Part shown: positions 7,922 to 52,973 of the stretch, one piece after another
How the letters are laid out: every line of letters begins with the position of its first letter
Position numbering within the stretch: position 1 is the first letter of the stretch
DNA from: Dehalococcoidia bacterium
GTDB lineage: Bacteria; Chloroflexota; Dehalococcoidia; Lucifugimonadales; GCA-2712585
Length of the DNA: 64,000 bases
Reading direction: 5' to 3'
Assembly (NCBI GenBank): GCA_963665075.1
Contig: OY762063.1
Location: forward strand, 630,844 to 694,843
Position numbers and translations under genes: made by a program
The notes under the pieces: generated by a model
Database searches by the model: none
The model's input: the letters and a program-made list of their open reading frames with translations, nothing else
What the model was told of the DNA's origin: nothing

Positions 7922-8078
7922 GCGGCGAACCCACCCTTGACACCTGGCAATCCGCTACATCCTAAAAGCCTTGCTTGCCTTTGTCAATGCCTTGTTTTAG
8001 GTGCGTGGATGTGAGACAGTGCACTTAGGCGTTCTGACCCAGGCGTCAAATCAGGTCAAACTTGCCCAGGAGCAGCAA

Positions 8079-16391: not shown

Positions 16392-16558
16392 GGCATTCCA
16401 CCCCTTTGATTCAGGATTGATGGGATACGACGGGAAAACTGCCCCGCCGATGTCCGTATGCTAGACACCGCCAATTCCAATGTCAAGACAAGGGGCAGGC
16501 GTCAAGAATCCTTGCGACGAATCCAATATATTCTGAGGGTAACAGCTGCGCTTTTCGT

Positions 16559-17446: not shown

Positions 17447-17598
17447 CAGCGCATCTCCTATCATTGTTCGGGCTTGATTCAGTATACAGCAGATTCGGCA
17501 ACATTCCATTTGCCTTTTTCAATCCGACAACTTAAACTAGCCCTTGCGCTCAACCCAACCCGGTTGAGCCAACGCAAACCTCCCAGGAGGCGAATTCA

Positions 17599-19524
17599 AT
17601 GAGAATCTTCCCATCCGCGAAAATCTTCCTGCTGCTGGCGATGGTCGTTTTGGCGACGGCCATAATCGTCGCTTGCGGCGATGACGCTGCGGACGAGCCC
17701 GCGCCCGCGGCGACGCCCGCCGCGCCGGCTCCGCAGCCAACCCCGGCCCCGACGGCTATGCCGGCCACACCGGCGCCAACGGCCATGCCCGCGACGCCAA
17801 CGGCTATGCCGGCTACACCGGCGCCGACGGCCAGGCCCGCTCCGCCGCCGACCGCCATGCCCACGCCAACCGGCCCCACCCGAGTAATCGTCCCGCCCAC
17901 GGCGGCGCCCGCGGCTACGCCGGTTCCCACGGCGATGGCGCCCAAGGTTCCCGTGCAATCCAGGCTGAGGGTCGCCATTCCGCCGCCCCAGTACCAGTCG
18001 CTCGCCATGTTCGACAGCGTCGAAGGCATCCTGCCCAACATGGAGCACGTCGTAGGCGTCGACTCCGAAACGGGCGTGGTTGACTTCAGCAGGCTCGCCG
18101 AGGAGTGGAGCATGTCCGACGACGGCACCGTCTGGAACTTCAAGCTCCGCGAGGGCATCCCCTTCCATACAGCCCCCGACTTCAACGGAGGAGAGTTGAC
18201 TGCCCTGGACGTGATTGAAACCCTTCAGGTTCTCGGCTCCGACCTCTCCAACCGGCCTACCATCTGGACCAACTTCGGCGTCGAGAACTCCAACTTCGAC
18301 GCCGTCGGGCGGTACGAACTGAACTGGATACTGAACGGCCCCGCTGCGGACATTGCCAACTGGCTCAGCCCGCAAACCCCCTCCGGCGTCATCAGTTCCG
18401 CCTACTTCAGGGCAAAGGGCGAGCAGGGCTACCTCACCCACCCCGTCGGCACCGGCCCGTTCAAGTTCAGCGAAGTCACCTTCGGACAGTACCTCCGCTA
18501 CGAGCGGGTGGAAGACCACTGGCGGAAGACTTCCGAGTTCCCCGAACTCGAATACCTCTTCGGCCCTGAAGACGCCACCCGTCTCGCCATGCTTCTGGCC
18601 CAGGAAGTGCACATCGCCGACGTTCCGCGCGCGCTTCTTCCCGAGGCCGCCCAGCGAGGCTTCGTCGTCGTCACCGGCTCACGGCCGGGCATGACCGTCT
18701 TCGTCTTCATCGGCGGCCAGTACTACGACGGCGAAAGGACGTACCTGGCAGGCCCGAAGAAGGGCCAGACGGAACCCGTCGCCCCCGGCTACGACCCCAC
18801 CGATCCCTTCCGGGACGTGCGGGTGCGGAAGGCCCTGAACCTGGCCATCAACAAGGAAGAGATAATCGACACCTTCTGGGGAGCGGCGGCCATACCGCAG
18901 GCCCAGTTCAGCCTCACCCCCAACCACCCCGATCACAAGGCTGAATGGACGCCTTATCCCTACGACCCGGACGAAGCCCGTCGCCTGCTGGTCGAGGCCG
19001 GCTACGAAGACGGCTTCGAGTTCGACTTCCAGACGGCCAAGGTCAGCGGCGTGCCGGAAGTGCCGGAAGTCGCGGAGGTCATCACCCAATACTGGTCGGA
19101 AGTGGGCCTCACGCCCAAGCTGCTGGAGCTCGGCTCCTTCAGCCAGATCCGCTCCCTGTACCGGGCGCGCGACATCGGACGCTACGCCTACCCCGTCCGC
19201 TACAGCATCAACCGCTTCGGCACCAACACCTGCTACCCCATGAGCAACGTGGCCGGCGGCTGCGGCTCTCCCCAGTGGGAGTACGACGACCTGGACCAGA
19301 TTTTCATCAATCTGCGTAACGCCGTTCAGCCCGATGAGATCAGGCGCTTGACCCACGAGATGGGAGACTACCTGTACAACAACTACATCATCATTCCCAT
19401 CGCCTTCCTGTTCCCGCAGGCGGCCTACGACCCGGGCGTCATAGCCGATCCCGGTTTCGCTCGATACATGGTTGACCAGGGTCCGACGGAGGGATTGGAA
19501 TACACCGTGCCCGTGTATCAGTAG
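17599..19524 (+). CDS. ABC transporter substrate-binding lipoprotein, family 5, with Pro/Ala/Thr linker
   Basis: AGGAGG RBS, lipobox IVACGD and a PAPTAMPATP repeat linker, followed by an SBP_bac_5-like body (YERVEDHWRKTSEF). Confidence 0.8.
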   Translation: MRIFPSAKIFLLLAMVVLATAIIVACGDDAADEPAPAATPAAPAPQPTPAPTAMPATPAPTAMPATPTAMPATPAPTARPAPPPTAMPTPTGPTRVIVPPTAAPAATPVPTAMAPKVPVQSRLRVAIPPPQYQSLAMFDSVEGILPNMEHVVGVDSETGVVDFSRLAEEWSMSDDGTVWNFKLREGIPFHTAPDFNGGELTALDVIETLQVLGSDLSNRPTIWTNFGVENSNFDAVGRYELNWILNGPAADIANWLSPQTPSGVISSAYFRAKGEQGYLTHPVGTGPFKFSEVTFGQYLRYERVEDHWRKTSEFPELEYLFGPEDATRLAMLLAQEVHIADVPRALLPEAAQRGFVVVTGSRPGMTVFVFIGGQYYDGERTYLAGPKKGQTEPVAPGYDPTDPFRDVRVRKALNLAINKEEIIDTFWGAAAIPQAQFSLTPNHPDHKAEWTPYPYDPDEARRLLVEAGYEDGFEFDFQTAKVSGVPEVPEVAEVITQYWSEVGLTPKLLELGSFSQIRSLYRARDIGRYAYPVRYSINRFGTNTCYPMSNVAGGCGSPQWEYDDLDQIFINLRNAVQPDEIRRLTHEMGDYLYNNYIIIPIAFLFPQAAYDPGVIADPGFARYMVDQGPTEGLEYTVPVYQ

Positions 19525-25761: not shown

Positions 25762-25794
25762 CTTGCTTCCTTCCACTATCCACAGGTTAAGGTG
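25762..25794 (+). other. 3' half of 16S precursor processing stem
   Basis: Reverse complement matches 24063-24096 apart from a 3-nt internal bulge and one G-U pair. Confidence 0.75.
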
Positions 25795-25806
25795 TTTTGA
25801 CGAAAA

Positions 25807-25837
25807 GAAGCCGGGCAACCCCCGGCTTCTTTCTTCT
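25807..25837 (+). terminator. Rho-independent terminator closing the 16S transcription unit
   Basis: Stem GAAGCCGGG / CCCGGCTTC and loop CAACC, followed by TTTCTTCT. Confidence 0.7.
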
Positions 25838-28800
25838 ATAATAGGAGTGAAGGAACCTAATTCTTGGACAAAAGTGACAATGATTAGCAAAGCAGAGATT
25901 AAGAACCGCGTACTCACCGATAACACCGCTCAAGGAGTTCTCAATCACCTAAGGGAACTCGAATCAAACCGCGCTCGCATGCAAAGGCGATGGATTTGGG
26001 AGCTTTTGCAGAACGCCCGAGATGCTTCCCATGAGGATGACACTCACCTTGTCGCCTCAGTTGAACTTTGCAGTGGCGAGCTTGTCTTTCAACACAATGG
26101 CCGCGGATTCACTATGGAGGAAGTTGCTCACCTTATTTACCACGGCTCCACAAAACTTGAGGATGAGGAGACGATAGGACAGTACGGTAGCGGGTTTCTG
26201 ACAACTCATCTATTGTCGCCAACCATTGATGTTTCCGGGCAACTCGATGACAAGCGACCTTTTGAGTTTCGACTCAAACGTGAAATTACCTCCGCCAAGG
26301 CCCTAAGCAACTCAATGGATAGAGCATGGGATCAGTTCGATGCGTCTACCGAAGCTGTAGCAGATAGTTATACGACTCGATTCCGATACCCGTTGGAGGA
26401 AGAAGCAACTGGCGCAGTTGAGGAAGGGATTAAAACGCTAAAGCAATGCGCTCCCTTTGTGGTCGTATTCAATCGTCAGTTTCGGAGCATCAATATTCAG
26501 TCCCCAGACGAAGCCACAACCTTCGAAGTAGTCGAACGAGTCACTTTGGCAGAAGGATTATATTCAGTCAGGGTGGGAGTAACGGAACAAGGAGCATTAA
26601 GGGTACAACAATACCTTCTTGCGGAAGGTACACAAGCATCCGTGACCATTCGTATTGAATCGACGGACGATGGGGTAGAATGCCTAGCACTCCAAGACAT
26701 TCCGAGGCTCTTTCTTGGGTTTCCTTTGGTAGGGACAGAGACATTCAGCTTTCCAGCCATTATCAATAGCTTTGCATTCACTCCAACTGAAAACAGAGAT
26801 GGTGTATATCTTGGCCAGAGCAATGATGAGGCTAACCAAAACAATCAAGCAGCTATCGAAGAAGCTTTCGACTTGCACACAAAGTTGATCAAGTTTGTGG
26901 CAGAATCCCGGTGGGCCAATGTCCATACGCTGGCAAACATCCCAACAATCACTGAACAACGTTGGCTCAGTAGAGAGTGGCTGAATGACCGACTTAGACA
27001 GCTTGTGTCTCAAGTTCGCCAAACGCCCGCGGTTCTCAGTGGTGATGCCGCATTGCTTCCAAAGGATTCCATTGTCCCGCTGGCTACAGAGGACATCAAC
27101 ACGGAGGCCCTTTGGGACCTATTGAGTCAGGTCAAAGCCCTCCAGCAAAAATTACCGGCGCGAAATGAAGCCAACGGTTGGCGCGTGGCGGTCGAGAGCT
27201 GGGCGCAAATTGCAGATTACGATGCGACTTCATTCGGCGAAGGTTTTGATAGCAGCAAATTAGTGTCGTACGTTGAAGAAGCAACCAAGCATAGCAGCAA
27301 CTCCAACATTGCCACACTTGAACAAGTTGTAGATGTAGATGCGGTCGCATGGCTAGACAGGTTTTATCAGTTTCTCAAGGATGAAAATACTGAAAATCTG
27401 ATTCGCGAGCGTAACATCGTCCTTAATCAAGCTGGCTATCTGGGCAAGCTCGTCAATCTGCACCGTGACAACGAAATTGATGAAGAGTTGAAGGCCATCG
27501 GGGACGATGTCCTTGACCTTAGGTTTAGAGTGCGACTTCGTGACGTTCGTCTCACTTCTCTCGCAAATGAACCTGGCAAGGGAGACCTCGGAAATAATGA
27601 AGTAAGCAGAGCAGTTGCGGATAAGCTGCAAGAGCTTAGTAATGAAGATGATATCGGAATCCAGTTCGCACATGCTAGCCCGCGTTTCTTGACGTGGTTA
27701 GTAACAAACAAGCAATTGGGGAGTTTGACAGGATTCCCAGCGTTCTCCAAGAGGTCCAACATCGGTAATCGTGCGGTGCTTTGGTTAGGGCAGAAAGGAA
27801 ATATCAATGCAGATATACCTCTTGCTCCTATCAACGCATGGGCAAAGGATCTTCAGCCATTTGCAGACATCTTTCCGTGGCGATACATTCTGGCCGAAGA
27901 TTATTTCGCAGCAATGCCTCAGACTGACGTTTGGCGGATGCTCAGTGAAGAAGGATATGTGAGGACGGATGTAGTGGTAAACAGCAACAATACCATTAGT
28001 GACTTCCTCCCAGACGAACCATTGCCGGAAGACGAACACATTACAGTCGAAGACATCACCCAAACTGAAATTGCCTTCCTTACTCGAACCAGAGAACGAG
28101 TCGGGATTATGGCGCGCCTGCGTGACAGTCAAGCACGTGCTAGACTGTTCTGGCGCTTCTTGACAGAATGGTTAATCACACACGATTCAGAAGGTTTGGA
28201 GCCTCAGTCAGCGAACTGTAAATGTGGCGTTTCCCATAGGTATTATCCCGCACGATGGCTGGTGCCGGTTGTGAGGAATATATGGGTACCGCAGGGAAAT
28301 GACATACATGATAGGGCAACAGCCCAGTCCCTAGCCAAGCTCCTTAGGGGCAGTGGGTGGACTCCCAATGCACTAAGCGACAACCCCACCGCTCTTAAAT
28401 TTCTGGAAGCAATCCGAGTGACGCGCTTTGACCTCGTGAGGCATTTCGCCGCGAGCGATGAGGAATCCCAATCTGCTCTAGATGAAGATTTGACCAAGAT
28501 TCTGGTTGCCACGGATGGAGATCTCAGTCATGTCAAGGCCTTCATGGAGGATATGAAGACGGATAAAGACTTCCTTAAGCACCTTGAAGAGCGTCGAAAA
28601 ACGAGGAGGGATGTACATGAAAACCAACGCATTGGGTCTCTTGTCGAAGACTTGGTGAAGGATGGTTTGGAAGACGAGGGATTCACCGTTAAACCCACCG
28701 GAATTGGTTCTGACTTCGAGATCGAATATGACAGGATTGAAGGTGACCAAGAGGTAGGAATAGAGTTGTCGCGAAACGGTCGAACTTGGTTGGTTGAAGT

Positions 28801-29160
28801 CAAGTCTACACGAGAGCAACGAGTGCGGATGACGACCAAACAGGCCGAAACAGCTGTGGAGAAAGGCGATGGTTTCCTACTCTGTGTGGTTCCTGTAGGA
28901 AACGATGGAACTAACCTAGAGAAGGAAGAAGTGAGAGCCAACATGCGATTCGTGCAAAATATCGGACCACTCGTTGAGCCTCAATGCACAAAACTCGATT
29001 TGTTGAATAATGTCCGTGACTTCGCCACAGCCCCCAGCGATGATGACATCCGATTGGAAATTGAAGGTGGCACAGCGCGAATAAGCGTCAATGACGCTGT
29101 ATGGCAAGATGGGATATGTCTCAGCGACCTCTCTACGAAGCTAATGTAGCGTAGAATGCG
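25838..29160. other. AT-richer island 1 (single defence-type gene, no recombinase)
   Basis: Composition drops right after the 16S terminator (a spot-counted line is ~50% G+C versus ~65% in the backbone) and recovers near 29160. Confidence 0.55.
25880..29149 (+). CDS. GHKL (sacsin/HSP90/MORC-like) ATPase fused to C-terminal DUF3883 / PD-(D/E)xK-like nuclease domain, 1,089 aa
   Basis: N-box WELLQNARDAS, G1 FQHNGRGFT, G2 GQYGSGFLT. C-terminus has GSDFEIEY...WLVEVKST (D...EVK). The track ORF start at 25763 runs through the rRNA processing stem and terminator and is rejected. Confidence 0.7.
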   Translation: MISKAEIKNRVLTDNTAQGVLNHLRELESNRARMQRRWIWELLQNARDASHEDDTHLVASVELCSGELVFQHNGRGFTMEEVAHLIYHGSTKLEDEETIGQYGSGFLTTHLLSPTIDVSGQLDDKRPFEFRLKREITSAKALSNSMDRAWDQFDASTEAVADSYTTRFRYPLEEEATGAVEEGIKTLKQCAPFVVVFNRQFRSINIQSPDEATTFEVVERVTLAEGLYSVRVGVTEQGALRVQQYLLAEGTQASVTIRIESTDDGVECLALQDIPRLFLGFPLVGTETFSFPAIINSFAFTPTENRDGVYLGQSNDEANQNNQAAIEEAFDLHTKLIKFVAESRWANVHTLANIPTITEQRWLSREWLNDRLRQLVSQVRQTPAVLSGDAALLPKDSIVPLATEDINTEALWDLLSQVKALQQKLPARNEANGWRVAVESWAQIADYDATSFGEGFDSSKLVSYVEEATKHSSNSNIATLEQVVDVDAVAWLDRFYQFLKDENTENLIRERNIVLNQAGYLGKLVNLHRDNEIDEELKAIGDDVLDLRFRVRLRDVRLTSLANEPGKGDLGNNEVSRAVADKLQELSNEDDIGIQFAHASPRFLTWLVTNKQLGSLTGFPAFSKRSNIGNRAVLWLGQKGNINADIPLAPINAWAKDLQPFADIFPWRYILAEDYFAAMPQTDVWRMLSEEGYVRTDVVVNSNNTISDFLPDEPLPEDEHITVEDITQTEIAFLTRTRERVGIMARLRDSQARARLFWRFLTEWLITHDSEGLEPQSANCKCGVSHRYYPARWLVPVVRNIWVPQGNDIHDRATAQSLAKLLRGSGWTPNALSDNPTALKFLEAIRVTRFDLVRHFAASDEESQSALDEDLTKILVATDGDLSHVKAFMEDMKTDKDFLKHLEERRKTRRDVHENQRIGSLVEDLVKDGLEDEGFTVKPTGIGSDFEIEYDRIEGDQEVGIELSRNGRTWLVEVKSTREQRVRMTTKQAETAVEKGDGFLLCVVPVGNDGTNLEKEEVRANMRFVQNIGPLVEPQCTKLDLLNNVRDFATAPSDDDIRLEIEGGTARISVNDAVWQDGICLSDLSTKLM

Positions 29161-31846: not shown

Positions 31847-32984
31847 GCGCGTCAAGACCCTCTGCATCATCTCCGCGACGCTCCTCCTGCTGCCCCTCAT
31901 GGCGGCTTGCGGCAGCGACGATGACGAATCGACGGCGACCCCATCGCCAACCCCCGCCGCCGAGGTCATGGTCGATCTTCCCCACGACGAAGGCGCCCAC
32001 GTCACCCCGATAGAATGGTGGTACTTCAACGGCCACCTGGACACGGAGGAAGGCCGGACTTTCAGCTACCACTTCGTCACCTTCCAGTCCGTGCTGGAGT
32101 CGGGTTTGACGCCCCGGTTGATGCAACTCAGCTGGGCCGACCACGCCGAGGGAATTCATCTGGCTGAGGAGCAGGCTGCCTTCCCAACCATAGAGGCGAC
32201 TTCGGGAGAATTCGACCTCGACGCCGGCGGCTGGCGCATGAGCGGCGACGGCAAGTCCTTCGATCTGTCCTTCAACATCGGCGACTACGCCGTGGAACTG
32301 GAGGGCGTATCCACAAAGCCTCCCGTCTTCCATTATGAAACCGGCTACGTGGACCTGGGCATCGCCGGCAAGACCTACTACTACTCCCACACCGACGTTG
32401 AGACTACCGGCGCGGTTTCCATCGACGGCGTCTCCCACCCCGCGACCGGCGTCGCCTGGATGGACCACCAGTGGGGCGACTTCACCACGGCTGGCATCGG
32501 CTGGGACTGGTTCAGCCTGAATCTCGACGACGGCTCCGACCTGAAAATATCCGTGGTGTGGGAGCTGGACGGCGGCAAGCACGTCGAAACCTACGGCACT
32601 TACGTCAATCCCGACGGTCAGACGGCGCACCTACCCGGAGACGAAGTCGCCCTGGAATCCACCGACGCGTGGGCCAGCCCCGACACCGGCGGCGAATACC
32701 CGATGGGCTGGCGGCTGCGCGTCCACTCACTCAATCTAGACCTAACGCTGACCCCCGTAATAAGAGACGCCGAATACTCCGAATCCCTATTCATCCCCGT
32801 CATCTACTGGGAAGGCGCGATAGCCGCAAACGGCGCCCGCAACGGCAACCCCATCACAGGCCGCGGCTTCGCCGAACTCGTCGGCTACGTCCCCACAACC
32901 CTTCCAACTGGGCGCGTGGTCTCATTGATAGGGAATGAAATTCTCAAGTCGCCACCATCCAGGATCCCTGCTACTCGGCATTAA
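31833..32984 (+). CDS. Lipoprotein, AttH/CrtC-like (hydroxyneurosporene-synthase-like lipocalin fold)
   Basis: Lipobox LMAACGSD; PHDEGAH..IEWWYFNGHL signature. The family-like sequence ends at ...GRGFAELVGYV, and the last ~20 codons read into island DNA. Confidence 0.6.
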   Translation: MLLSKRVKTLCIISATLLLLPLMAACGSDDDESTATPSPTPAAEVMVDLPHDEGAHVTPIEWWYFNGHLDTEEGRTFSYHFVTFQSVLESGLTPRLMQLSWADHAEGIHLAEEQAAFPTIEATSGEFDLDAGGWRMSGDGKSFDLSFNIGDYAVELEGVSTKPPVFHYETGYVDLGIAGKTYYYSHTDVETTGAVSIDGVSHPATGVAWMDHQWGDFTTAGIGWDWFSLNLDDGSDLKISVVWELDGGKHVETYGTYVNPDGQTAHLPGDEVALESTDAWASPDTGGEYPMGWRLRVHSLNLDLTLTPVIRDAEYSESLFIPVIYWEGAIAANGARNGNPITGRGFAELVGYVPTTLPTGRVVSLIGNEILKSPPSRIPATRH

Positions 32985-34076
32985 CAGATCAATTTCCTTT
33001 GCTTTCCGACCTCCGCGCCCGTGGTGCGCTGAAATACCCGGGAATGGCGCAGTGGTTTGCCTGACAAGTAGCCGTCTATGGGGCCATACTTCCCGCATTG
33101 CGGATATACACATTGCAGCGGTCCTTCGGCGTTGGTCGCTACGGACGAGAATTGCTGATCCTCTCTTTAGATGGCCCTTGCATTCTTCGAAAACGCTTGT
33201 GATTAAACGTTGATATTCCACGCGGTTTTCAAATCGTGCTGATTTTGTCCAGTTCTTCCGAAACGGGAAACCAAGCATCCAAAGCCGAATCCAATGGTCG
33301 TTCCAATAATCAGTAACTCCACAATATGGGGGCGATGTAATCAATAGTGCTGCATTTGCACGATTCTGTTTTCGAAGTTCATATCGGGAATCTCCCAGCA
33401 GGACTGTCCCAAAGGCTTGTGTAGGTACGCCGTATTGGTATCGACGGTTAATCTTGGACTCCAACATAGCCACTGGATCTACTTCAGGCGGTTTGAGGTA
33501 ACCATTGCGTGTCCACCATTTGACCGCATAGGTAGGTGAGTATGCGATGGTAGGAGACATGACGTTCGACAGGCCAGATCCCATTTTATCCTGCATGTGC
33601 AAAGCTATAAATGCCATCAGGGTTCTATCTATGACTGAGTTGCGCCAGTCAAGTTCACGGCGAGCAGATTTTAGCAGTGCTCGTACGGTAGGAGACCAAG
33701 CCATAGTTTCAAACCTGCTGTTGCTTCGCCGGTCTATGGGACGACAGGCCCTTGAAATTTCGGCCAGTCTAGCAATGACTTGTTCGGCGGAATTAGAAGG
33801 TTGCAGTTTGGCCGCAGCAAATAGCCATGCAATGGGATTGACGTCGATTCCGAGAGCGTGTCTACCCAGAACTGTGGCGGCGAATGGCCCGTTGCCCCGA
33901 CCACAGAAAGGATCTAGAACCGTTTCTCCCGGCTTTGTTAAGTTGATGATGGCGTCGTGTATGAAGGTCTGGGGGAACATGGCATAATAGCGCCCAAACC
34001 CATACCAGCGTCCTGCGGCTGTGTTACGATGCCATGTGTCCTTGCTCGTTGATTCCCCTTTTTTTGGTATCTTCAT
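32922..34076 (-). CDS. DNA amino-methyltransferase (N6-adenine or N4-cytosine), motif order I...IV
   Basis: Motif I VLDPFCGRGNG.FAA, then ~190 aa, then motif IV LITSPPYCGVTDYW. The ATG at 34076 overlaps the upstream stop (ATGA). Confidence 0.8.
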   Translation of the reverse strand: MKIPKKGESTSKDTWHRNTAAGRWYGFGRYYAMFPQTFIHDAIINLTKPGETVLDPFCGRGNGPFAATVLGRHALGIDVNPIAWLFAAAKLQPSNSAEQVIARLAEISRACRPIDRRSNSRFETMAWSPTVRALLKSARRELDWRNSVIDRTLMAFIALHMQDKMGSGLSNVMSPTIAYSPTYAVKWWTRNGYLKPPEVDPVAMLESKINRRYQYGVPTQAFGTVLLGDSRYELRKQNRANAALLITSPPYCGVTDYWNDHWIRLWMLGFPFRKNWTKSARFENRVEYQRLITSVFEECKGHLKRGSAILVRSDQRRRTAAMCISAMREVWPHRRLLVRQTTAPFPGISAHHGRGGRKAKEIDLLMPSSRDPGWWRLENFIPYQ

Positions 34077-35389
34077 GTCGCGAGGCTGTGTATCAGATCC
34101 GTACCGGCCTTTAGCGGAATAGACGCCCAACGATGAGATCTACGCAAGGCGAGGAATTGATCGCTTCCTACCCCTAACGGTCCAGCCGTGCTGATAGCGT
34201 CTCCCAAGGCACGTGGCGCAGGCTGATTGGTCAGCGGTGGATCTGATTCAGGTTGTGCTATGTTGAGGACAAGTCTTTGTCCTTTTGTAGTTTTTAGAAT
34301 AACGGGCCGTCCATAGTGAGTGAGCTCACCCCAAGGAGTTGGGCTATCGGAATGCCCGGCAATTATGTGTTTTCTGATGTACGCATTGTTTGGCAGCCAA
34401 ACATGGTCAGCAGGGATTCGCTTGTTTGGGGCCGGCGCTCGGTCAAGCTCCTCAGCGTGTTGTACGAACGGCCCGCTTTTAACCCCGGATATAACCAGCA
34501 ATTGTGCGTCTGGACGGAATTTTTGAAGTTCAATTTGGATCCGCTTCATTTCTCTGCGGATTGATTGAGCTAGTACGGCAATGGTGCCAAACGCAGCCAG
34601 TTGACCATCCATGACAAATGCAGTGTTACACAGGGCGGCCAAGCCCTGTTCAGATTTGGCCAAGCGTCGCAGGCTGTTGACCAAAGCCAACATTTCCAGA
34701 GTTTGCATAACTCGAATGTGACACTCACGAGCAGATTCATTTTCTCTAAATTGCTCGTGAACCCTAAGGGCGTCTGTAGTAACGATGCCCATTCCACACT
34801 TGGGGCAATTTTCTTCGGTTCGCGGTTTGGGCATCGGCAGCTGAGTACCATTACAATAAGGATGATTAGGACATCTACGGATTTTATGCTGGGATCCCAG
34901 TACGTAATAAAGACTCTCAGCGAAAGTTTCGCTCCCCAAAGATACTTTATTCAATGTATCATTGAAGGAGCGGCGAAACCATTCTTTAGGACCCAGTCCG
35001 TCAATTGTCTTGGCATTCTTACCTGGCAGCACTGCACCGAGACTATGCCCACACTCGGTCTTCCTGAGTTCCCGCGGATTGACTGCACCGCTGTCGGCTA
35101 GCTTGCTCAGCGATGCTAGTTGTCTTAGCTTGATAACCACAATCCCAAGCGATACAACTCCGGCTTGTGTATCTGGGAGTCTTCCTGGGAAATGGTCATA
35201 GACTTGTGAGCCATCTATGGCTACCAAATGGGTTCGCGATGTCCCTACGGGACTTGGTCGGAAACGTGGTAGGTTTAGTACAGCATCTTGACTAGGTGGT
35301 TGTAACCGATCGCGGAACTCGGCAAATTCCGTGCTATCGGCTATTGCTTGGATTGCAGCCAATCCCGCTCTCTCATCGGAGTACGGCAT
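34073..35389 (-). CDS. NurA-like nuclease with Zn-ribbon insert (putative)
   Basis: HLVAIDGSQV and AFVMDGQLAAFG resemble the two DGS/DGxL NurA motifs. Cys cluster CPNHPYC...CPKCG. Located directly downstream of a HerA-like ATPase. Confidence 0.5.
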   Translation of the reverse strand: MPYSDERAGLAAIQAIADSTEFAEFRDRLQPPSQDAVLNLPRFRPSPVGTSRTHLVAIDGSQVYDHFPGRLPDTQAGVVSLGIVVIKLRQLASLSKLADSGAVNPRELRKTECGHSLGAVLPGKNAKTIDGLGPKEWFRRSFNDTLNKVSLGSETFAESLYYVLGSQHKIRRCPNHPYCNGTQLPMPKPRTEENCPKCGMGIVTTDALRVHEQFRENESARECHIRVMQTLEMLALVNSLRRLAKSEQGLAALCNTAFVMDGQLAAFGTIAVLAQSIRREMKRIQIELQKFRPDAQLLVISGVKSGPFVQHAEELDRAPAPNKRIPADHVWLPNNAYIRKHIIAGHSDSPTPWGELTHYGRPVILKTTKGQRLVLNIAQPESDPPLTNQPAPRALGDAISTAGPLGVGSDQFLALRRSHRWASIPLKAGTDLIHSLAT

Positions 35390-35442
35390 ATTCTACTCAG
35401 TCAACAAATACGTGCTCAGAATTCCCCGTTGCCTGACAAGCC

Positions 35443-37617
35443 TTATGGAGTGGTGGCATCTTGGATCTCGAACTTGTCGAGTTGGACTGGTACAGTATAA
35501 GCCTGTGATAGCGTACGTATTCGCACAAAACCTTGCTCACTGACCTTCCCGATTTGTTCAATGAAGTCTGAGAAATCCATGTATCCGGCGACAACTCTAC
35601 GTTCAGATTCGGAATTCAGGTAGGATAGAACCCAGTTATCGGTTTCACTGAGTATTTCAGGCATCACTGAGCTTGGTGCCTGCGTGGCTAAAACCATTCC
35701 GACATTTAACTTGCTTCCTTCTTTGGCTGTCCTCGCCCATACAGTTGTCAGGTTGTCGCGTGCATTTGCACGGGGGAGTAAGTTGTGGGCTTCCTCAATA
35801 TAGATGATTATGTGCCCTTTCGTCGCTTGGGATTCGTCTGGGGGCTTGGAAGGGTCGAAATTTGCCAAAACAGACCTAAACTGTTCCTGCTGTGATCTGA
35901 ATATGCGCCACATCACCCGCTCGGCGGCAGCTTGATTCTGTTCTGGATCGCCGGCTGATTGGTCAATGATGACCAACTTGCCTTCTCTCAAATCATCGAC
36001 AACGGCTTCGGCGAAATCATTGCTTGTATTAGGATCGTGTTGTTCCTGGGCAATTTGGAAGGAGCGAGGGCCATTTCGGGATTCGAAGATGCGCAACACC
36101 GCTCGAAACCTAGGATCTGCCCAAGATTCATGAGTCGAACTTTTGCTGATATAGTCCTGTTCGAACTTGTCGAAGTAACTCCTTTTGTCTTCAATAAAAC
36201 GTGACAGTGCGGTAAATACTGTTATGAGTTGGTCCCAAGTGACGTTAAATTGTTTAGTTGCAGATGATTCGAGGATATTAGATGCTTGAAGATAGTCTGT
36301 CTTGTTGTCGCTATTCGGGTTTTTGTCTAGTTTAAGGGCAGCAATCAGTTCTTTTGAAAACATCGAGTGCATTCCCGGCCCTTGAATTGAGGGTTGCCAG
36401 TGTGACGGCTGCGACAATCCGGCTGCTACTAGTGCAGTTCGATAGGCTAGAATAGCCCGGTAGTAGCGGGTCTTGGCTCCCATGTCTCCAGCAGCATTGG
36501 GTTCGACAGAAAGGTCTATGTCACGGAAGGCAGTGGTGTACCTGGCAGTTTCGTTTACCATGATATTCTTTATGATTTCTTTGCCGGCAAGCATCTGATC
36601 GAGGGCCTGCTCGACTTTCTGGGTGTCCTGTGCCGTTTGCCAAGATTTAGGTATTGGATCTCCAAAGAAGTTTAGCTTCATAACCTTGCGTTCAGGATCC
36701 CAATCAACAGGAATCAATCCATAGGTTGCAACTTCAGATTGTCGGGGCAAACCTATGGATTCGTGGACTCGGTGAAGGCCTTTACCGTCTTGGTAGTTGT
36801 CTTGGGCATATTCGCCGCTCAAGTCAAAAATAATCTGTCCTATCCGATGTTCGGGATTATCTTGGCGCAACCGATAGATGCTCTCGGCTACAATCTTTAA
36901 GCCGTTTGATTTGCCAGAGCGGGACATACCGAAGTAAACGGTGCGCCTTTTCATTATGTCAGTGGGATTGATCTTAAAATCAACCTTAGTCGTGCTTTCG
37001 GACTCAGCGGCCGCAAACCTAGTACGACCAATTTTCGTAGCTCTTCTATCAATGGGTATGTCATTGGTACGATGACGATGGTTGACTATCAGATCAAGTG
37101 TGGTGGCATCCGGCTTCCATACCATTAGTTGATTGACGGAGTAGTAGTTGTCGATGTCCTCTGCATAACGGTACTGAAGTTTTTCATTCTTGGTTGCCTC
37201 GGCAATGAATGTGCCTAGTACCGAACACTCCAGTCCATGCAAAGACATCTTGTCCTTCATCCAGTCTGGGAGCCGTTCCGACCATGGCCCTCGGTTGCCC
37301 GAATCTTCAATGCTCTCTTGCCTTGTTTGATCATTAGCAGAAGCAGCCGGCAACCTAGCCTCCTTCTGAATTCGCAGTAGAATGAACGACTCGTCTCCAT
37401 CGGGTTTTGCCGCCATTAGAAACGCATTCTTGGGCAATCCACCAGCTTGCTCGCGGTCATAGTCATACACAGCTACAATTGCGCTGCTGTACGAGATGGT
37501 ATAAACAGTCCCTACCTTGGGCGCTCTCTCCCTAAACGGCCTAGTCTCCGGCTGGCTAGCGCTTTGGATTAGGTCATCAATAACAGTTGCTGATGAGTTC
37601 TGCTCATCTTGTGCCAT
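35443..37617 (-). CDS. HerA/FtsK-superfamily ATPase (HAS-barrel + DUF87-like P-loop domain), 724 aa
   Basis: N-terminal barrel-like GTVYTISYSSAIVAVYD; Walker A YFGMSRSGKSN; Walker B HIIIYIEEAHNLLP; LATQAPSSV...SYLNSESE block typical of HerA. Confidence 0.75.
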   Translation of the reverse strand: MAQDEQNSSATVIDDLIQSASQPETRPFRERAPKVGTVYTISYSSAIVAVYDYDREQAGGLPKNAFLMAAKPDGDESFILLRIQKEARLPAASANDQTRQESIEDSGNRGPWSERLPDWMKDKMSLHGLECSVLGTFIAEATKNEKLQYRYAEDIDNYYSVNQLMVWKPDATTLDLIVNHRHRTNDIPIDRRATKIGRTRFAAAESESTTKVDFKINPTDIMKRRTVYFGMSRSGKSNGLKIVAESIYRLRQDNPEHRIGQIIFDLSGEYAQDNYQDGKGLHRVHESIGLPRQSEVATYGLIPVDWDPERKVMKLNFFGDPIPKSWQTAQDTQKVEQALDQMLAGKEIIKNIMVNETARYTTAFRDIDLSVEPNAAGDMGAKTRYYRAILAYRTALVAAGLSQPSHWQPSIQGPGMHSMFSKELIAALKLDKNPNSDNKTDYLQASNILESSATKQFNVTWDQLITVFTALSRFIEDKRSYFDKFEQDYISKSSTHESWADPRFRAVLRIFESRNGPRSFQIAQEQHDPNTSNDFAEAVVDDLREGKLVIIDQSAGDPEQNQAAAERVMWRIFRSQQEQFRSVLANFDPSKPPDESQATKGHIIIYIEEAHNLLPRANARDNLTTVWARTAKEGSKLNVGMVLATQAPSSVMPEILSETDNWVLSYLNSESERRVVAGYMDFSDFIEQIGKVSEQGFVRIRTLSQAYTVPVQLDKFEIQDATTP

Positions 37618-37653
37618 AGGCCTCTCCCTAACAGGTCAAATCTTGGGTTTAGC

Positions 37654-37727
37654 TTGGGACATACGAGGTTCGGACCGTGATCTCTGTCTCGAGAGGAAAA
37701 TATCCTAGCCCATTAGGTGAATGCACC
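37654..37727 (-). pseudogene. Decayed tRNA-Glu(CTC) copy
   Basis: Aligns along its full length with the intact tRNA-Glu at 57907-57983. The anticodon loop CTCTCGA is retained, but the acceptor, anticodon and T stems have mismatches and the T-loop lacks 1 nt. Confidence 0.65.
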
Positions 37728-37822
37728 AACTAATGCCACCATTCTATCACACTTTCCCGTGTCTAATCACCAACTGTTCAATAATCAATAAAGTGACTAC
37801 TGCCGAGTGCAGTAGTAATAGG
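37728..37822 (+). repeat. Decayed copy of the tRNA-Glu/tRNA-Gln intergenic promoter region plus first ~22 nt of tRNA-Gln
   Basis: CCATTCTATCACAnTTTCCC.TGT...CACCAACTGTT..ATAAT...CTGCCGAGTG..GTAGT..TA is shared with 57984-58080. Confidence 0.65.
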
Positions 37823-38093
37823 ACGCAGCCCCCAACCACACCCGTTTCCGGTCTAAACGCCCAAAACCATAAGCCCTCGGCGGGGGCCATCTGACCGATC
37901 GCCTCCCTACCAAGTCACTAAACGGCATTTGGCAGCGTCATACTTCGTAACTAAATATCTCGTTTTGCGCGTAAATCGTCGGCGTCATACATTTCGCCGC
38001 AGGCTTGACTAGAGTTGCTCATATAAGTAAGCTACATTCGTAACTGCCAAGTCTGCCTATGGCTCTTTCCAATTCGAATAGAGAGGTGTCGCG

Positions 38094-50854: not shown

Positions 50855-51184
50855 CTACCTGTTGTGTTGTATGTTAGCTTCTGGCTTCCACAACCTTATC
50901 AGTCGACGCTCCAGATTGTCAATCTTGGTCAAATCGGCTGCCATGTAACACACGTCCAAATTCTCGCCGAAGACTTGAATCCATAGCCTAAGCGTTTCAT
51001 TGTGCGAGCCGCGCCAATGATACGTCAATCGCTTCTTAACGGGTTGCTTCTTCGCCTTGCCTACGTAGATGCACTTCCCGTTGTCGCGGCACCAAAATGC
51101 GTATACGCCAAAGACATTTCTAGGAACGCCCTCGATTCCGAGGTACGACCACCTAATTGCTCTTCTATCGTGTATGGAACCCAT
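50855..51184 (-). CDS. Small GIY-YIG nuclease-domain protein
   Basis: FGVYAFW...CIYVGKAKK.PVKKRL.YH...E(RRLIRLWKP)EAN gives the GIY, YIG, R, E, N order. The track ORF start (51274) overlaps the upstream gene by 110 nt, so the ATG at 51184 is preferred. Confidence 0.55.
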   Translation of the reverse strand: MGSIHDRRAIRWSYLGIEGVPRNVFGVYAFWCRDNGKCIYVGKAKKQPVKKRLTYHWRGSHNETLRLWIQVFGENLDVCYMAADLTKIDNLERRLIRLWKPEANIQHNR

Positions 51185-52973
51185 GCGGAATGTCCCAAAC
51201 TTGAGCGGCCAGTTTTGCCATGTCTTTTTGGCGCTTCTCGATTGCGTCCGGCGACCACTCGTGAACCTCTGCAATGCTACTGGTTAGGTTAATGGTACTC
51301 CTACCAAAAATTTCCTGCTTACGAGTGAAGCTCCGATTCGTAGCTGCCCCAGGCTTATTGTCTGAGTTGCTCAACAACGTCAGGTTACCTATGCGATGTA
51401 TATTTGCCTGGTGGCTCTGCTCGTCAAAATTAGGCCAATATCCTAAATGACCCTGAGATATTGGGAGGATGTGTTCCACCGTATAGGCAGTTTCGTTGAT
51501 TGTCAATCCGGATTGTTCCTTGTACGCGATGCCTAGAAGAAACCTCTTTGCCTTCCCTCTATAACTACTTCGGATAGTAGCTCGTTCCATCAAAGCAATG
51601 AAATTCGAATCATCAAGAATCCCCAGATCATCAACTTCGCGCAGGCAACCATAAAAATCAACATCGTCAAGTGAACTGGCTGACATCACCTGCTGGGCTA
51701 AAGTTGCAAATTGCCGATCAAGATGTGACGGTTGAAATTGTCGGATTGCCAAAGCAGTTCGTATGACAAAGGAGGTGAGTAACTTTAGGCGAGTGTGCAC
51801 AAATTTTGCGATCTTTCTTTTTTTTGCCCTATCTTCCTCTTGTAGATAACGATCAAGCAAGGCAAAAACTATTGGGCGGCACACAGTATAGTATTTCAAT
51901 TCGCTCAGAAAGATAAACAGGTTTCTCCCAGGTTTGCCCGGGGCATCCCCAATGAACCTTGAAATCAAAGGGTCAGTTTCACGGGGTGACGATATGGAGT
52001 GGAAAATTACAATCCTTTCCCCCTTGGCCATATCCTCCACCAAACCATAAACGAAATTGGCCAAATCGGCATCAGAGGGTCCATTGGCATTGACCCTGAT
52101 TTGTGACTTCATCTCCCTGTATAGACGGTCTTTGCGTAGGTAGCCAAACCTACATTGCAGGTAGCACCTAATATACTCCTCAACCCTCGTTTTGCTCCGC
52201 TCTTCTCTAAGTCCAACTCGCATACCCTCAAGGTGGTCGTGAATCGTATCGCGTCGGGGACCTTCGGCCTTTCCGAAAAAAGAGTAAATGTGATTCCGAA
52301 TCAGGTCTACTTCACTAAGGGGCTTTCCCCTGGCATTAAGTGTTTCAAAGACAGCATTCGGGTTGAGTTGTCTTGGAACGTGGATGCATGCAACTTCAAG
52401 TTTGCGTATTAGAAAATCGAAAAAACTCGTGGCGTCATCTACACTAAAAGATTCAAAATACTCATCGATTACACGCCAAGCCTTCGTTAGCTTTCCGTTG
52501 GGGCTGACATCCTTGCCCCGTATGAGCGTATTGTAATTTGTCTTATCGTTCTCAGGAGGAGTAAGTCTGGGGAATAGGATGTCAGACTCTGTTAGTGAAA
52601 CGCGATCATATTCACCAATATCAAATAAAATACGCAAAGCGTCTTGTTCTCGTAATGCATCTCCTATTTCGTAAAATATACGGACAAGTCGAGCGCAAAT
52701 TAGCGAGAAAGTTACCATGCGTTGCTGCCCGTCATTGATTTCCCAGAGGTCATCGTCTTTTTCTACAAGCATAATGGCTCCCAGGAAGTAACACTCACGC
52801 TCCTCTAGTACCGCTTCCTGTAAGTCATCCAGCAAATCAGAAACATCCTCATTTCCCCAATCGTAATAGCGCTGATGCCAAGGCACCTCATACTTTCCCT
52901 CGTGAAACAAGAATGAGAGCTTGGCCGTAGCTGCACCTATGACAGTTTCGCTATCTCTACCAGTTGTTTTCAC
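51165..52973 (-). CDS. DUF262 (DGQQR ParB-like NTPase) + DUF1524 (His-Me finger) protein, SspE/GmrSD-like
   Basis: N-terminus YEVPWHQRYYDW and WEINDGQQRMVTF. C-terminus YTVEHILPIS...IGNLTLLSNSDN. The GTG start overlaps the upstream stop (GTGA). Confidence 0.7.
   Translation of the reverse strand: MKTTGRDSETVIGAATAKLSFLFHEGKYEVPWHQRYYDWGNEDVSDLLDDLQEAVLEERECYFLGAIMLVEKDDDLWEINDGQQRMVTFSLICARLVRIFYEIGDALREQDALRILFDIGEYDRVSLTESDILFPRLTPPENDKTNYNTLIRGKDVSPNGKLTKAWRVIDEYFESFSVDDATSFFDFLIRKLEVACIHVPRQLNPNAVFETLNARGKPLSEVDLIRNHIYSFFGKAEGPRRDTIHDHLEGMRVGLREERSKTRVEEYIRCYLQCRFGYLRKDRLYREMKSQIRVNANGPSDADLANFVYGLVEDMAKGERIVIFHSISSPRETDPLISRFIGDAPGKPGRNLFIFLSELKYYTVCRPIVFALLDRYLQEEDRAKKRKIAKFVHTRLKLLTSFVIRTALAIRQFQPSHLDRQFATLAQQVMSASSLDDVDFYGCLREVDDLGILDDSNFIALMERATIRSSYRGKAKRFLLGIAYKEQSGLTINETAYTVEHILPISQGHLGYWPNFDEQSHQANIHRIGNLTLLSNSDNKPGAATNRSFTRKQEIFGRSTINLTSSIAEVHEWSPDAIEKRQKDMAKLAAQVWDIPHGFHTR

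Follow-up and report, generated by a model that had tools for sequence, protein, structure and literature searches.

A HerA-family ATPase, NurA-fold nuclease and DNA methyltransferase trio from a Dehalococcoidia bacterium as a candidate methylation-based counterpart of the Tdp defence system

A three-gene cassette encoding a HerA-family ATPase, a NurA-fold nuclease, and a DNA amino-methyltransferase (MTase) was found in a 64,000-nucleotide stretch of a Dehalococcoidia bacterium contig (OY762063.1; hereinafter referred to as the window). Judged from sequence, the trio is probably a self-contained defence cassette that resembles restriction-modification systems and moves horizontally, a methylation-based counterpart of the Tdp system. 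Intact active sites, the strict linkage of the three genes, their mobility, and recurring defence genes in their neighbourhood argue for this reading, as do the decay of HerA beside an intact MTase and the near-absence of the cassette from viral contigs. Literature searches turned up no paper that presents the trio as a defence system.

The three genes are co-directional on the minus strand, as described in the sequence-only reading: HerA (35443..37617, 724 aa), NurA (34073..35389, 438 aa), and MTase (32922..34076, 384 aa, with its start ATG at 34076). The longest TTG-initiated open reading frame for the MTase (32922-34130) would give a 402-aa form; public gene calls carry the 384-aa, ATG-initiated protein, and the 402-aa version is absent from them. 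Direct reading of the minus strand confirmed that the stop codon of NurA (TGA) and the start codon of the MTase (ATG) overlap in ATGA at 34073..34076, implying translational coupling, and the 4-nt overlap, or a comparable short overlap or junction, was present at this boundary in most related loci. The GC content of the trio was 0.47-0.51 compared with approximately 0.62 in the flanks, and its GC3 was approximately 0.47 (0.45-0.50) compared with approximately 0.8 in host genes; the DNA is foreign by composition. The earlier description of the trio as lying in the window's most AT-rich DNA is not exact, as the segment at 52-53 kb has a GC content of 0.454 and the minimum within the trio is 0.466.

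The trio lies between a gene for a CrtC-like lipocalin and one for an SBP_bac_5 solute-binding protein. The scanned genes next to it included no type IIG enzyme and no integrase, which upholds the earlier remark on integrases for these genes, and neither att-like repeats nor an adjoining tRNA gene was present beside it. Upstream of HerA lies a non-coding leader of low GC content (37618..38093, minus strand), in which the operon promoter is presumed to reside. A Shine-Dalgarno-like sequence (GGGAGAGG) is located 5 nt (gcct) ahead of the HerA ATG, and scanning of the leader gave no consensus sigma-70 site, no Rfam match, and no credible small open reading frame. The leader falls outside the conserved unit, because nucleotide homology to the closest cassettes ends at the HerA start codon.

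The ATPase combines a RecA-like core with an N-terminal beta-barrel (approximately residues 34-152) and an enlarged helical insertion (approximately residues 300-560). Its Walker A (GMSRSGKS, 36907-36930), Walker B (IIIYIEE, 35791-35811), and ATQAPS...YLNSESE (35602-35688) motifs, all on the minus strand, were located as quoted, as were the motifs of the other two genes given below, and residues G230, K236, S237, E608, and E609 were invariant among 31 homologues. The HerA assignment was borne out by a match to Pfam DUF87 (29 bits; cut-off 23.2), by PADLOC HerA models (approximately 1e-14), and by NCBIfam HerA_antiphage (3.8e-14). The top sequence match in the PDB was TdpA (4.8e-13; 5.5e-16 with the family profile), and a Foldseek search with the AF2 model (mean pLDDT 61.6) also returned TdpA chains first (E 3e-9), followed solely by other HerA rings.

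The window nuclease had no Pfam or PADLOC match of its own, and PADLOC has no model that covers it. Pfam NurA was nevertheless matched by 18 of 30 members of its family (best 2.2e-6), and a fold search of the PDB with its AF2 model (pLDDT 77.3, pTM 0.79) gave NurA-family chains as all of the best 14 matches, the first six at E <= 1e-3, so that the NurA-like label proposed earlier stands. The best TM-score between model and PDB was obtained with TdpB (8wfd_G, 0.48/0.57). On the minus strand, the gene encodes AIDGS (35207-35221, including D59), DGQ (34601-34609, including D261), and a Cys/His zinc-ribbon insert, CPNHPYC...CPKC (34796-34873). D59, D261, K304, and the zinc-ribbon cysteines were invariant or nearly so across 41 nuclease sequences with identities down to 22%. 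By exhaustive profile search, the family amounts to 566 clusters at 50% identity.

The MTase belongs to the PF01555 family and is permuted, with motif I (DPFCGRG, 33894-33914, minus strand) preceding motif IV (SPPY, 33324-33335, minus strand), in agreement with its earlier designation as an amino-methyltransferase. It matched Pfam N6_N4_Mtase at 54.3 bits (cut-off 26.7) and PADLOC MTase_II at 1e-19, and D55, P56, G59, and S248-P-P-Y251 were invariant in 32 homologues, archaeal and Anaerolinea copies included. An SPPY motif points to N4-cytosine specificity, which is probably that of this enzyme. No hypervariable target-recognition region was found across the MTase family, in contrast to the many restriction-modification families that diversify their specificity, and this counts against a restriction-modification reading.

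Conservation of the trio as a unit extended across phyla and to an archaeon. Among 29 species-representative genomes, HerA was located upstream of the nuclease in 28, and the MTase downstream in 28 of 28. The same held at assessable loci of a distant soil and freshwater clade (HerA 60/60, MTase 68/68), drawn from 502 metagenome hits and only 26-33% identical. The MTase is thus no orphan, being present in every assessable locus and mostly overlapping the NurA stop with its start. A haloarchaeal (Halorarius) plasmid carried the genes in the same order as in the window, and Deferribacter pDF308 had the three families arranged differently. Mean conservation was equal for all three proteins (0.73). 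More distant HerA-NurA relatives lacked the MTase: on cyanobacterial plasmids an exonuclease-domain protein stood in its place, and two viral-contig matches had none. The motor and nuclease thus have no intrinsic need of a protective methylase, which counts against the defence reading.

Hosts of the trio included Dehalococcoidia, Caldilineaceae, Gammaproteobacteria, Alphaproteobacteria, Binatia, Longimicrobiales, Ca. Poriferisodalis, and Truepera, and the distribution across phyla was patchy. Nucleotide homology between cassettes ran exactly from the start codon of the first gene to the stop codon of the last, and the cassette was found on plasmids and beside transposases. Given the foreign GC3, the range of hosts, the homology ending at the cassette edges, and the varied neighbours, the trio is by all appearances a mobile cassette of many bacterial phyla and an archaeon. 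Among 2.9 million viral contigs, it was all but missing. The main decay pattern among the loci was an intact MTase with a broken HerA (approximately 7-8 broken HerA genes against 0-1, where 65:35 would be expected by length; the excess is not significant). Loss of the restriction gene with the methyltransferase kept whole is usual in restriction systems.

No fourth conserved gene was found beside the trio: the 109 neighbouring open reading frames fell into 110 Pfam families, none of which occurred in more than three. Defence genes recurred among the neighbours, including PglX, MmeI/Eco57I, AbiEii-like ATPases, TIR-TPR, GmrSD/HEPN, Type III Mod and Res, sacsin/NOV_C, UvrD-PD(D/E)XK, and Cas1. 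In many loci, however, the trio lay amid ordinary metabolic genes and not in a clear defence island, which counts against the defence reading. Restriction genes were located directly upstream and co-directional in several loci, namely Type III Mod and Res in L032 and L097, Res-type frames in L084, L116, and L117, and a type IIG enzyme directly upstream of HerA in L001 and L027. The gene junctions there were nearly gap-free (in L097, for example, 912/914 and 3901/3902).

These upstream genes are compatible with an accessory role in end resection, in which HerA-NurA would load on the ends of linear phage DNA or on ends left by another enzyme, whether a restriction enzyme or a different defence nuclease, and then break down the fragments in the manner of RecBCD after restriction. 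The MTase would then be cognate to or protective for the partner, or provide a stop signal, and would not be the primary switch. The HerA-NurA complexes of archaea and Deinococcus load on DNA ends and resect them, their structures (PDB 9x1l-n, 7f6d, 2ygk, 4d2i) share the two folds and were among the fold matches of the nuclease, and the window pair is expected to be built likewise, with a NurA dimer seated on a HerA hexamer. Those complexes differ in being encoded by housekeeping genes without a methyltransferase, linked to Mre11-Rad50 in archaea, whereas the window pair is mobile, MTase-linked, and remote from them (10-13% identity in fold alignments). We regard the accessory role as unlikely: most loci, the window included, have no adjacent restriction gene, yet the MTase is still strictly linked and translationally coupled to NurA, which argues for autonomous function of the three genes.

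A role in DNA donation was considered on the basis of ICETh1 of Thermus thermophilus, the one operon combining these three domains that has been studied. It comprises TthHB27I/Tth111II, NurA-like TTC1878, TdtA (TTC1879), and a PF01555 methylase (TTC1880), and its motor and nuclease are needed for DNA donation, while deletion of the methylase has only minor effects (PMC5365140, PMC7767461). The earlier statement that the trio is not a recognised named system thus holds for defence systems, but the same domain association has been described in ICETh1 (PMC5365140, PMC7767461). By analogy, chromosomal DNA would be processed by NurA and the HerA/FtsK-like motor and driven out for transfer between cells ('transjugation'), with the methylase as an accessory. 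The resemblance extends to co-transcription of a NurA-family nuclease, a HerA/FtsK-superfamily hexameric ATPase, and an N4/N6 methylase of approximately 400 aa, and to a restriction enzyme directly upstream, a position taken in L001 and L027 by a type IIG enzyme as by TthHB27I in ICETh1. The experimentally assigned function of ICETh1 counts against the defence reading. Against donation, ICETh1 has four genes including the type IIG enzyme, in the order NurA-TdtA-MTase, within an integrase-bearing, excising element, whereas the window trio differs in order and has no type IIG gene, integrase, or att-like repeats alongside. No integrase or conjugation family ranked among the commonest neighbour families, nor did any recur beyond a few loci. 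In addition, none of the three trio proteins has a transmembrane segment, whereas TdtA is reported to be membrane-associated, and the MTase, nearly dispensable in ICETh1, is strictly conserved in the trio. DNA donation is accordingly a doubtful explanation, with little probability assigned to it.

Housekeeping double-strand-break repair, with an orphan methylase downstream by chance, would suit the NCBI label of relatives ('DNA double-strand break repair nuclease NurA') and the repair roles of HerA-NurA in archaea and Deinococcus, but it is highly improbable in view of the foreign composition, the patchy distribution with homology ending at the cassette edges, the strict and coupled MTase linkage in every assessable locus of two clades, the frequent pseudogenisation of HerA, and the occurrence on plasmids and beside transposases.

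The preferred reading of a defence cassette draws its closest precedent from TdpABC, which PMC12914056, citing An et al. (Nat Chem Biol 2025), describes as a phosphorothioate-based restriction-modification system of thermophiles. As outlined there, the Tdp operon makes a modification gene beside a HerA/NurA pair an established restriction architecture. The closest solved relative of the window ATPase, both in sequence and in fold, is TdpA, and that of the window nuclease, in fold, is TdpB (structures compared: PDB 8wet, 8wfd). Both systems consist of one DNA-modification gene, a HerA-like ATPase, and a NurA-like nuclease, and MPYxxER opens both TdpB and the window nuclease. The Tdp operon was recovered as a PP-loop gene, a NurA-like gene, and a HerA-like gene, an order (C-B-A) that differs from HerA-NurA-MTase in the window. 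Its modification gene encodes a PAPS-reductase/PP-loop enzyme that yields backbone phosphorothioates, whereas that of the window encodes a SAM-dependent base methyltransferase. Further, only the ATPase core shows sequence similarity to TdpA; the window ATPase, whose helical insertion is larger, exceeds TdpA by 138 residues, and the window nuclease has a zinc ribbon, unlike TdpB. Tdp is reported from extreme thermophiles, in contrast to the trio, which occurs in metagenome-assembled genomes with sponge-symbiont relatives (Ca. Poriferisodalis), varied environmental metagenomes, and haloarchaeal sequences.

Other defence systems were more distant. SIR2-HerA/Nezha and DUF4297-HerA likewise combine a HerA hexamer with an effector enzyme in an anti-phage system, and their PADLOC and NCBIfam 'anti-phage HerA' models match the window ATPase, although the match to NF042943 (52 bits) is far under the cut-off of 800; their effector is a SIR2 NADase or DUF4297 nuclease, and a modification gene is missing. 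Type III restriction-modification, BREX, MADS, and MANTIS share a self-marking methyltransferase with an ATP-driven motor/nuclease effector, and the PADLOC models mad8 and mad2 weakly matched the trio. Their motors are SF2 helicases or AAA+ proteins without HerA/NurA components, and their gene sets are different and larger (eight genes in MADS).

In the proposed mechanism, the MTase would mark host DNA at its own recognition sites, and the HerA hexameric translocase and NurA would form an ATP-driven complex that threads and processively degrades unmarked DNA, standing in for a classical restriction endonuclease. Methylation would keep HerA-NurA off self DNA, as phosphorothioate marks hold off TdpAB. 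We infer complex formation, self protection by methylation, and reading of the mark. Since ring motors touch the DNA backbone and not the bases, two routes of mark reading are considered most likely. In one, the MTase would recognise the sites, in the way that Mod serves Res in Type III systems; in the other, the mark would be read by NurA through its zinc ribbon or by HerA through its enlarged helical insertion. The self-marking and non-self-degrading logic suggested in the sequence-only reading thereby gains a direct precedent in TdpAB, a phosphorothioate-gated HerA/NurA-like restriction machine; for the trio, a function in defence and the part played by methylation are still presumptive. 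If the reading is true, the HerA-NurA pair would be the effector in methylation-based restriction, paralleling TdpAB with phosphorothioate.

Three co-directional open reading frames (ORFs) were identified on the minus strand by ORF scan, together spanning 32922-37617: a gene for a HerA-family ATPase of 724 aa (35443-37617), a gene for a NurA-fold nuclease of 438 aa (34073-35389), and a DNA methyltransferase (MTase) gene that extends from 32922 to either ATG 34076, the more plausible start, or TTG 34130 (hereafter, the trio). Public gene calls contained the 384-aa MTase that begins at the ATG, and the 402-aa form was absent there. The motifs quoted in the sequence-only reading were all found at the expected positions in the three ORFs, and the overlap it had described, in which the MTase ATG shares ATGA with the TGA of the preceding NurA gene, was read in the sequence.

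The 724-aa protein matched PF01935 (DUF87) at 29 bits (curated cut-off, 23.2), and its Walker A (GMSRSGKS) and Walker B (IIIYIEE) motifs were invariant in 31 homologues. Several HerA models of PADLOC and NCBIfam matched it at ~1e-14, far below their equivalog cut-offs. Its AF2 model was moderate (pLDDT 61.6), with low confidence in the C-terminal 115 residues; β-strands at residues 34-152, forming an N-terminal β-barrel, were followed by an α/β core, and an unusually large helical insertion was modelled with confidence. Among the Foldseek matches listed, 50 of 50 were HerA-family rings, the first being TdpA (E 3e-9), the HerA-like ATPase of the TdpABC system. The protein is a HerA-family ATPase with the HerA fold of barrel, RecA-like core, and helical insertion, and its earlier placement in the HerA/FtsK superfamily stands on the DUF87 score, the Walker motifs, and fold matches confined to HerA proteins. 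Membrane-segment prediction returned none in any of the three trio proteins.

No match to the window nuclease was obtained in Pfam at E ≤ 1, or in PADLOC or NCBIfam, and PADLOC v2 contains no model for it. The Pfam NurA family (PF09376) was matched by 18 of 30 family members (best, 2.2e-6), some of the precomputed matches being faint. The AF2 model of the nuclease was good (pLDDT 77.3, pTM 0.79), and its comparison with the PDB placed NurA-family chains at all of ranks 1-14, six of them at E ≤ 1e-3; the chains matched were those of T. kodakarensis, D. radiodurans, S. solfataricus, and P. furiosus, together with TdpB and TM1739. The predicted structure has an RNase H-like NurA fold, and these ranks bear out the proposal that the 438-aa protein is NurA-like. 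D59, D206, and D261 were invariant across 41 nuclease sequences, down to 22% identity, and the Cys/His zinc-ribbon insert and K304 were conserved to the same depth, while E112 and D130 were invariant inside the close clade. The nucleases of the trio family also share an invariant N-terminal signature, MPYxDER.

The third protein matched PF01555 at 54.3 bits (cut-off, 26.7). Its motif I (DPFCGRG) precedes motif IV (SPPY), and DPFxG and SPPY were invariant in 32 homologues, in agreement with its description as an amino-MTase. SPPY is typical of N4-cytosine enzymes, and the product predicted from this motif is m4C. Column conservation across the MTase family showed no hypervariable TRD of the kind that would signal diversifying specificity.

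A genome search using one genome per species yielded 29 trio loci, from Dehalococcoidia/SAR202, Caldilineaceae, Gammaproteobacteria, Alphaproteobacteria, Binatia, Longimicrobiales, and Anaerolinea, and protein searches extended the trio to Candidatus Poriferisodalis and Truepera. In these species-representative genomes, HerA lay upstream of the NurA gene in 28 of 29 loci and the MTase downstream in 28 of 28, with the same gene order and mostly the same 4-nt overlap. The family is large: an exhaustive profile search sorted the nucleases into 566 clusters at 50% identity. A single sub-clade, which shares only 26-33% identity with the window nuclease, gave 502 relatives in a JGI metagenome scan, from which 80 loci were fetched. 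Among the assessable loci of this distant sub-clade, all 60 had HerA upstream and all 68 had the MTase downstream, on the opposite strand in two of the latter. An archaeal (Halorarius) plasmid carried all three genes in the order seen in the window, and in the Deferribacter plasmid pDF308 (locus L036) the order was MTase, IS-disrupted HerA, NurA. The trio is therefore conserved as a unit. Mean column conservation was 0.73 for each of its three proteins, which evolve at an equal rate.

Cyanobacterial plasmids (Tolypothrix, Calothrix, Nostoc) encoded a remote HerA-NurA pair (25-31% identity) and no MTase, as in the Tolypothrix locus L034 (NZ_CP050441.1, 4940-11329). An HTH regulator preceded the pair, and downstream came a small hypothetical gene and then an 816-aa 'exonuclease domain-containing protein'. 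In these plasmids the motor-nuclease chassis is the same, and the third component is of another kind.

The GC content of the trio segment was 0.47-0.51 versus ~0.62 in its surroundings, and its GC3 was 0.45-0.50 versus ~0.8 in neighbouring genes; these low values mark the segment as acquired. The window contains three low-GC islands, of which this is one. The statement that it occupies the most AT-rich DNA was not exact, since the GC minimum (0.454) lies at 52-53 kb and the trio at 33-38 kb. The flanks are ordinary genes encoding a CrtC-like lipocalin protein and an SBP_bac_5 solute-binding protein. In accordance with the earlier observation, no integrase was present among the neighbouring genes examined; there was also no tRNA gene beside the trio and no direct or inverted repeat around it. 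The 476-nt leader gave no Rfam match and no credible candidate in a small-ORF search, so that an RNA element and a small ORF were both rejected. When the window was aligned with its closest relatives, nucleotide homology ran from the HerA start to the MTase stop; as it stops at the coding ends and flanking repeats are lacking, transposon-like ends were rejected. The nearest relatives were Dehalococcoidia MAGs. Among 2.9 million viral contigs, the close family had no match and the distant family two remote matches, and a phage origin was rejected because the cassette was essentially absent from this set.

The cassette itself contained no transposase or terminal repeats. Transposase or resolvase genes (DDE_Tnp_1, DUF4096, Resolvase, IS200/IS605 TnpA/TnpB) were found beside or inside some cassette copies, for example at 5752-7945 in locus L002, at 16395-17762 in locus L001, and in pDF308. 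In degraded cassettes, HerA was mostly the gene hit (split, truncated, or IS-interrupted), with NurA and MTase intact (L011, L012, L013, L029, L043/L045/L049, L069, L085, and L036). HerA decay was counted in ~7-8 independent loci versus 0-1 for the MTase alone (L065 being borderline), an excess that does not reach significance once gene length is allowed for; NurA-based sampling also biases the tally. Such a picture, which is like that of restriction lost and modification kept, serves as a weak supporting sign for a role like that of restriction-modification (R-M).

The other two low-GC islands of the window both hold defence-type genes. At 51165-55395 on the minus strand (GC 0.45-0.49, GC3 ~0.46), three overlapping co-directional genes encode a class-V aminotransferase/cysteine desulfurase (1.5e-83), a PAPS-reductase-domain protein (6.8e-10), and a GmrSD_N+GmrSD_C (DUF262/DUF1524) nuclease, an arrangement suggestive of a compact Dnd/Ssp-like cassette that combines phosphorothioate modification with restriction; a PDB sequence search with the PAPS-reductase protein returned no relative. 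At 25763-29149 on the plus strand, 3.8 kb from the trio, lies a gene for a 1128-aa sacsin-like protein with HATPase_c and NOV_C (DUF3883) domains.

The neighbours of the trio were highly variable between loci, and many loci sat among metabolic genes. A conserved fourth gene was rejected: across the 109 and 131 ORFs scanned beside the trio, no Pfam family reached more than 3-5 loci. Defence genes nevertheless recurred beside the trio, including BREX PglX, MmeI/Eco57I-type enzymes, AbiEii-like ATPases, a TIR-TPR protein, GmrSD with HEPN, UvrD-PD(D/E)XK helicase-nucleases, Cas1, and large sacsin/NOV_C proteins. Proteins of the last type, with SACS and/or NOV_C domains (1070-1510 aa), adjoined the trio in loci of both the close and the distant clade (L007, 8565-11936; L087, 5381-9913; L089, 406-3621; L106, 232-3486); the sacsin-like protein may be a recurrent partner of the trio, or merely a frequent neighbour in defence islands.

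Restriction genes directly adjoined HerA in some loci. In one sub-branch, as read in L032 (52-8504) and L097 (94-8495), a tightly packed, almost gap-free Type III Mod+Res pair, composed of a PF01555 Mod-like gene and a gene for a ~990-aa protein with ResIII and RE_endonuc domains, was located immediately upstream of HerA and formed a five-gene co-directional cluster with the trio. A large Res-type ORF ended right at the HerA start in L084, L116, and L117, and a type IIG (MmeI/Eco57I-like) gene took the place of the Type III pair in L001 and L027, the only trio relatives with such an enzyme beside them. These arrangements would suit a trio that serves as an end-resection accessory to neighbouring restriction enzymes; in the window, the MTase partners only HerA and NurA, with no HsdR, Res, PD-(D/E)XK, or HNH component, and we consider the accessory role unlikely. 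The same lack of a classical restriction subunit led to the rejection of R-M Types I-III. MADS was also rejected: it is defined by an operon of eight genes, mad1-8, that includes a kinase and a specificity subunit, and the weak matches to mad8 (1.5e-11) and mad2 (6e-6) reflect general similarity among P-loop proteins and among MTases. No SIR2 or DUF4297 domain was found in the trio proteins, which excluded SIR2-HerA and DUF4297-HerA, and the NCBIfam anti-phage HerA model scored 52 bits on the ATPase against a cut-off of 800.

The nearest known counterpart was TdpABC, cited in PMC12914056 as a phosphorothioate-based R-M system of thermophiles (An et al., 2025). Among solved structures, TdpA was the best match for the trio ATPase in both sequence and fold, and TdpB gave the best TM-score for the nuclease, remote as the relationship is (13-14% identity in fold alignments). 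Since three genes in A-B-C order raised the suspicion that the trio is itself TdpABC, TdpA fragments were rebuilt from a PDB alignment and led to a TdpA relative with 93% identity across the part of the query that matched, whose locus was read (L120; GCA_001311585.1, contig BBBN01000146.1, 1394-4504). Its gene order was PAPS-reductase/PP-loop, NurA-like, DUF87 (HerA-like), and each of the three genes was split between several ORFs, probably by frameshift errors of the draft assembly. The NurA-like protein of L120 begins MPYPGER; beyond the MPYxxER N-terminus shared with the trio nucleases, a comparison of the nuclease-family profile with the TdpB-like fragment gave a probability of 2.6%, too low to be informative. 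Identity with TdpABC was rejected because the modification gene of L120 encodes a PAPS-reductase/PP-loop protein, in contrast to the SAM-dependent MTase of the trio. The trio shares the restriction half of Tdp, differs in modification chemistry, and is not a Tdp system.

We consider it probable, by analogy, that the trio is a methylation-based counterpart of Tdp with an R-M-like function. This reading is based on the folds and apparently intact active sites, the strict coupled linkage, the mobility, the recurrent defence neighbours, and the fact that the nearest solved relatives form a modification-gated restriction machine. In the proposed mechanism, the MTase would mark self DNA, and a HerA6-NurA2-type complex would processively degrade DNA that lacks the mark. 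The mark could be read by the MTase, in the role of a specificity subunit like Mod; other candidates are the zinc ribbon of NurA and the enlarged helical insertion of HerA. Complex formation, protection by methylation, and these ways of mark reading are what we infer. Counting against an R-M-like function are the MTase family's lack of a hypervariable TRD, the remoter HerA-NurA relatives that have no MTase, and the phenotype of the Thermus thermophilus element ICETh1, which points to DNA donation.

The ICETh1 operon comprises TthHB27I, a NurA-like gene, TdtA, and a PF01555 methylase, and by published description its content of NurA, HerA/FtsK ATPase, and PF01555 methylase domains equals that of the trio; TthHB27I upstream of NurA-TdtA also parallels the restriction genes upstream of the trio in some loci. 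DNA donation there depends on the motor and the nuclease, and the methylase is nearly dispensable (PMC5365140, PMC7767461), so that the trio could be a DNA-donation module of the ICETh1 type. No Thermus plasmid was matched at E ≤ 1e-3. ICETh1 is an excising element with att repeats, an integrase, and a type IIG restriction enzyme, none of which lies beside the window trio; we regard a donation module as quite unlikely. Housekeeping repair, the remaining explanation for a HerA-NurA-MTase trio, is very improbable.

The sequence-only reading had not recognised the trio as a named system. This holds for its defence role, no description of which was found in the literature on HerA, NurA, and methyltransferase with defence or restriction (few subscription journals being covered), and does not hold for the gene association, which is already known from one Thermus operon; the logic likewise has a precedent in Tdp. 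Three aspects appear to be new: how widely the MTase-HerA-NurA trio occurs as a conserved mobile unit, its self-contained nature without a restriction enzyme, and its likely R-M-like role, undescribed in the searchable literature and unmodelled in PADLOC v2. A wider proposition, that HerA-NurA-MTase is a widespread unnamed class of R-M-like immunity in which base methylation rather than phosphorothioate gates a processive ring translocase and nuclease, seems to us evenly balanced. It would mean horizontal spread among eight or more bacterial phyla as well as to haloarchaea, and concealment from current defence finders owing to the missing PADLOC nuclease model. As a corollary, the ICETh1 'DNA donation' operon may belong to the same class, with transfer a by-product of DNA degradation, and the Thermus 'transjugation' operon would then be read differently.

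Relatives in cultivated Succinivibrio (S. dextrinosolvens) and Sulfurimonas (S. paralvinellae) and on the Halorarius plasmid make experiments feasible. If the R-M-like reading is true, current counts of defence systems in sponge symbionts, soil bacteria, and haloarchaea are probably too low, since PADLOC v2 misses the trio; a compact three-gene family would be added to the methylation-based defence systems, and how a backbone-gripping ring translocase responds to a base modification would become a mechanistic question. The HerA-NurA resection machine would then have been recruited for restriction on at least two occasions, with phosphorothioate as the gate in Tdp and methylation as the gate in the trio.
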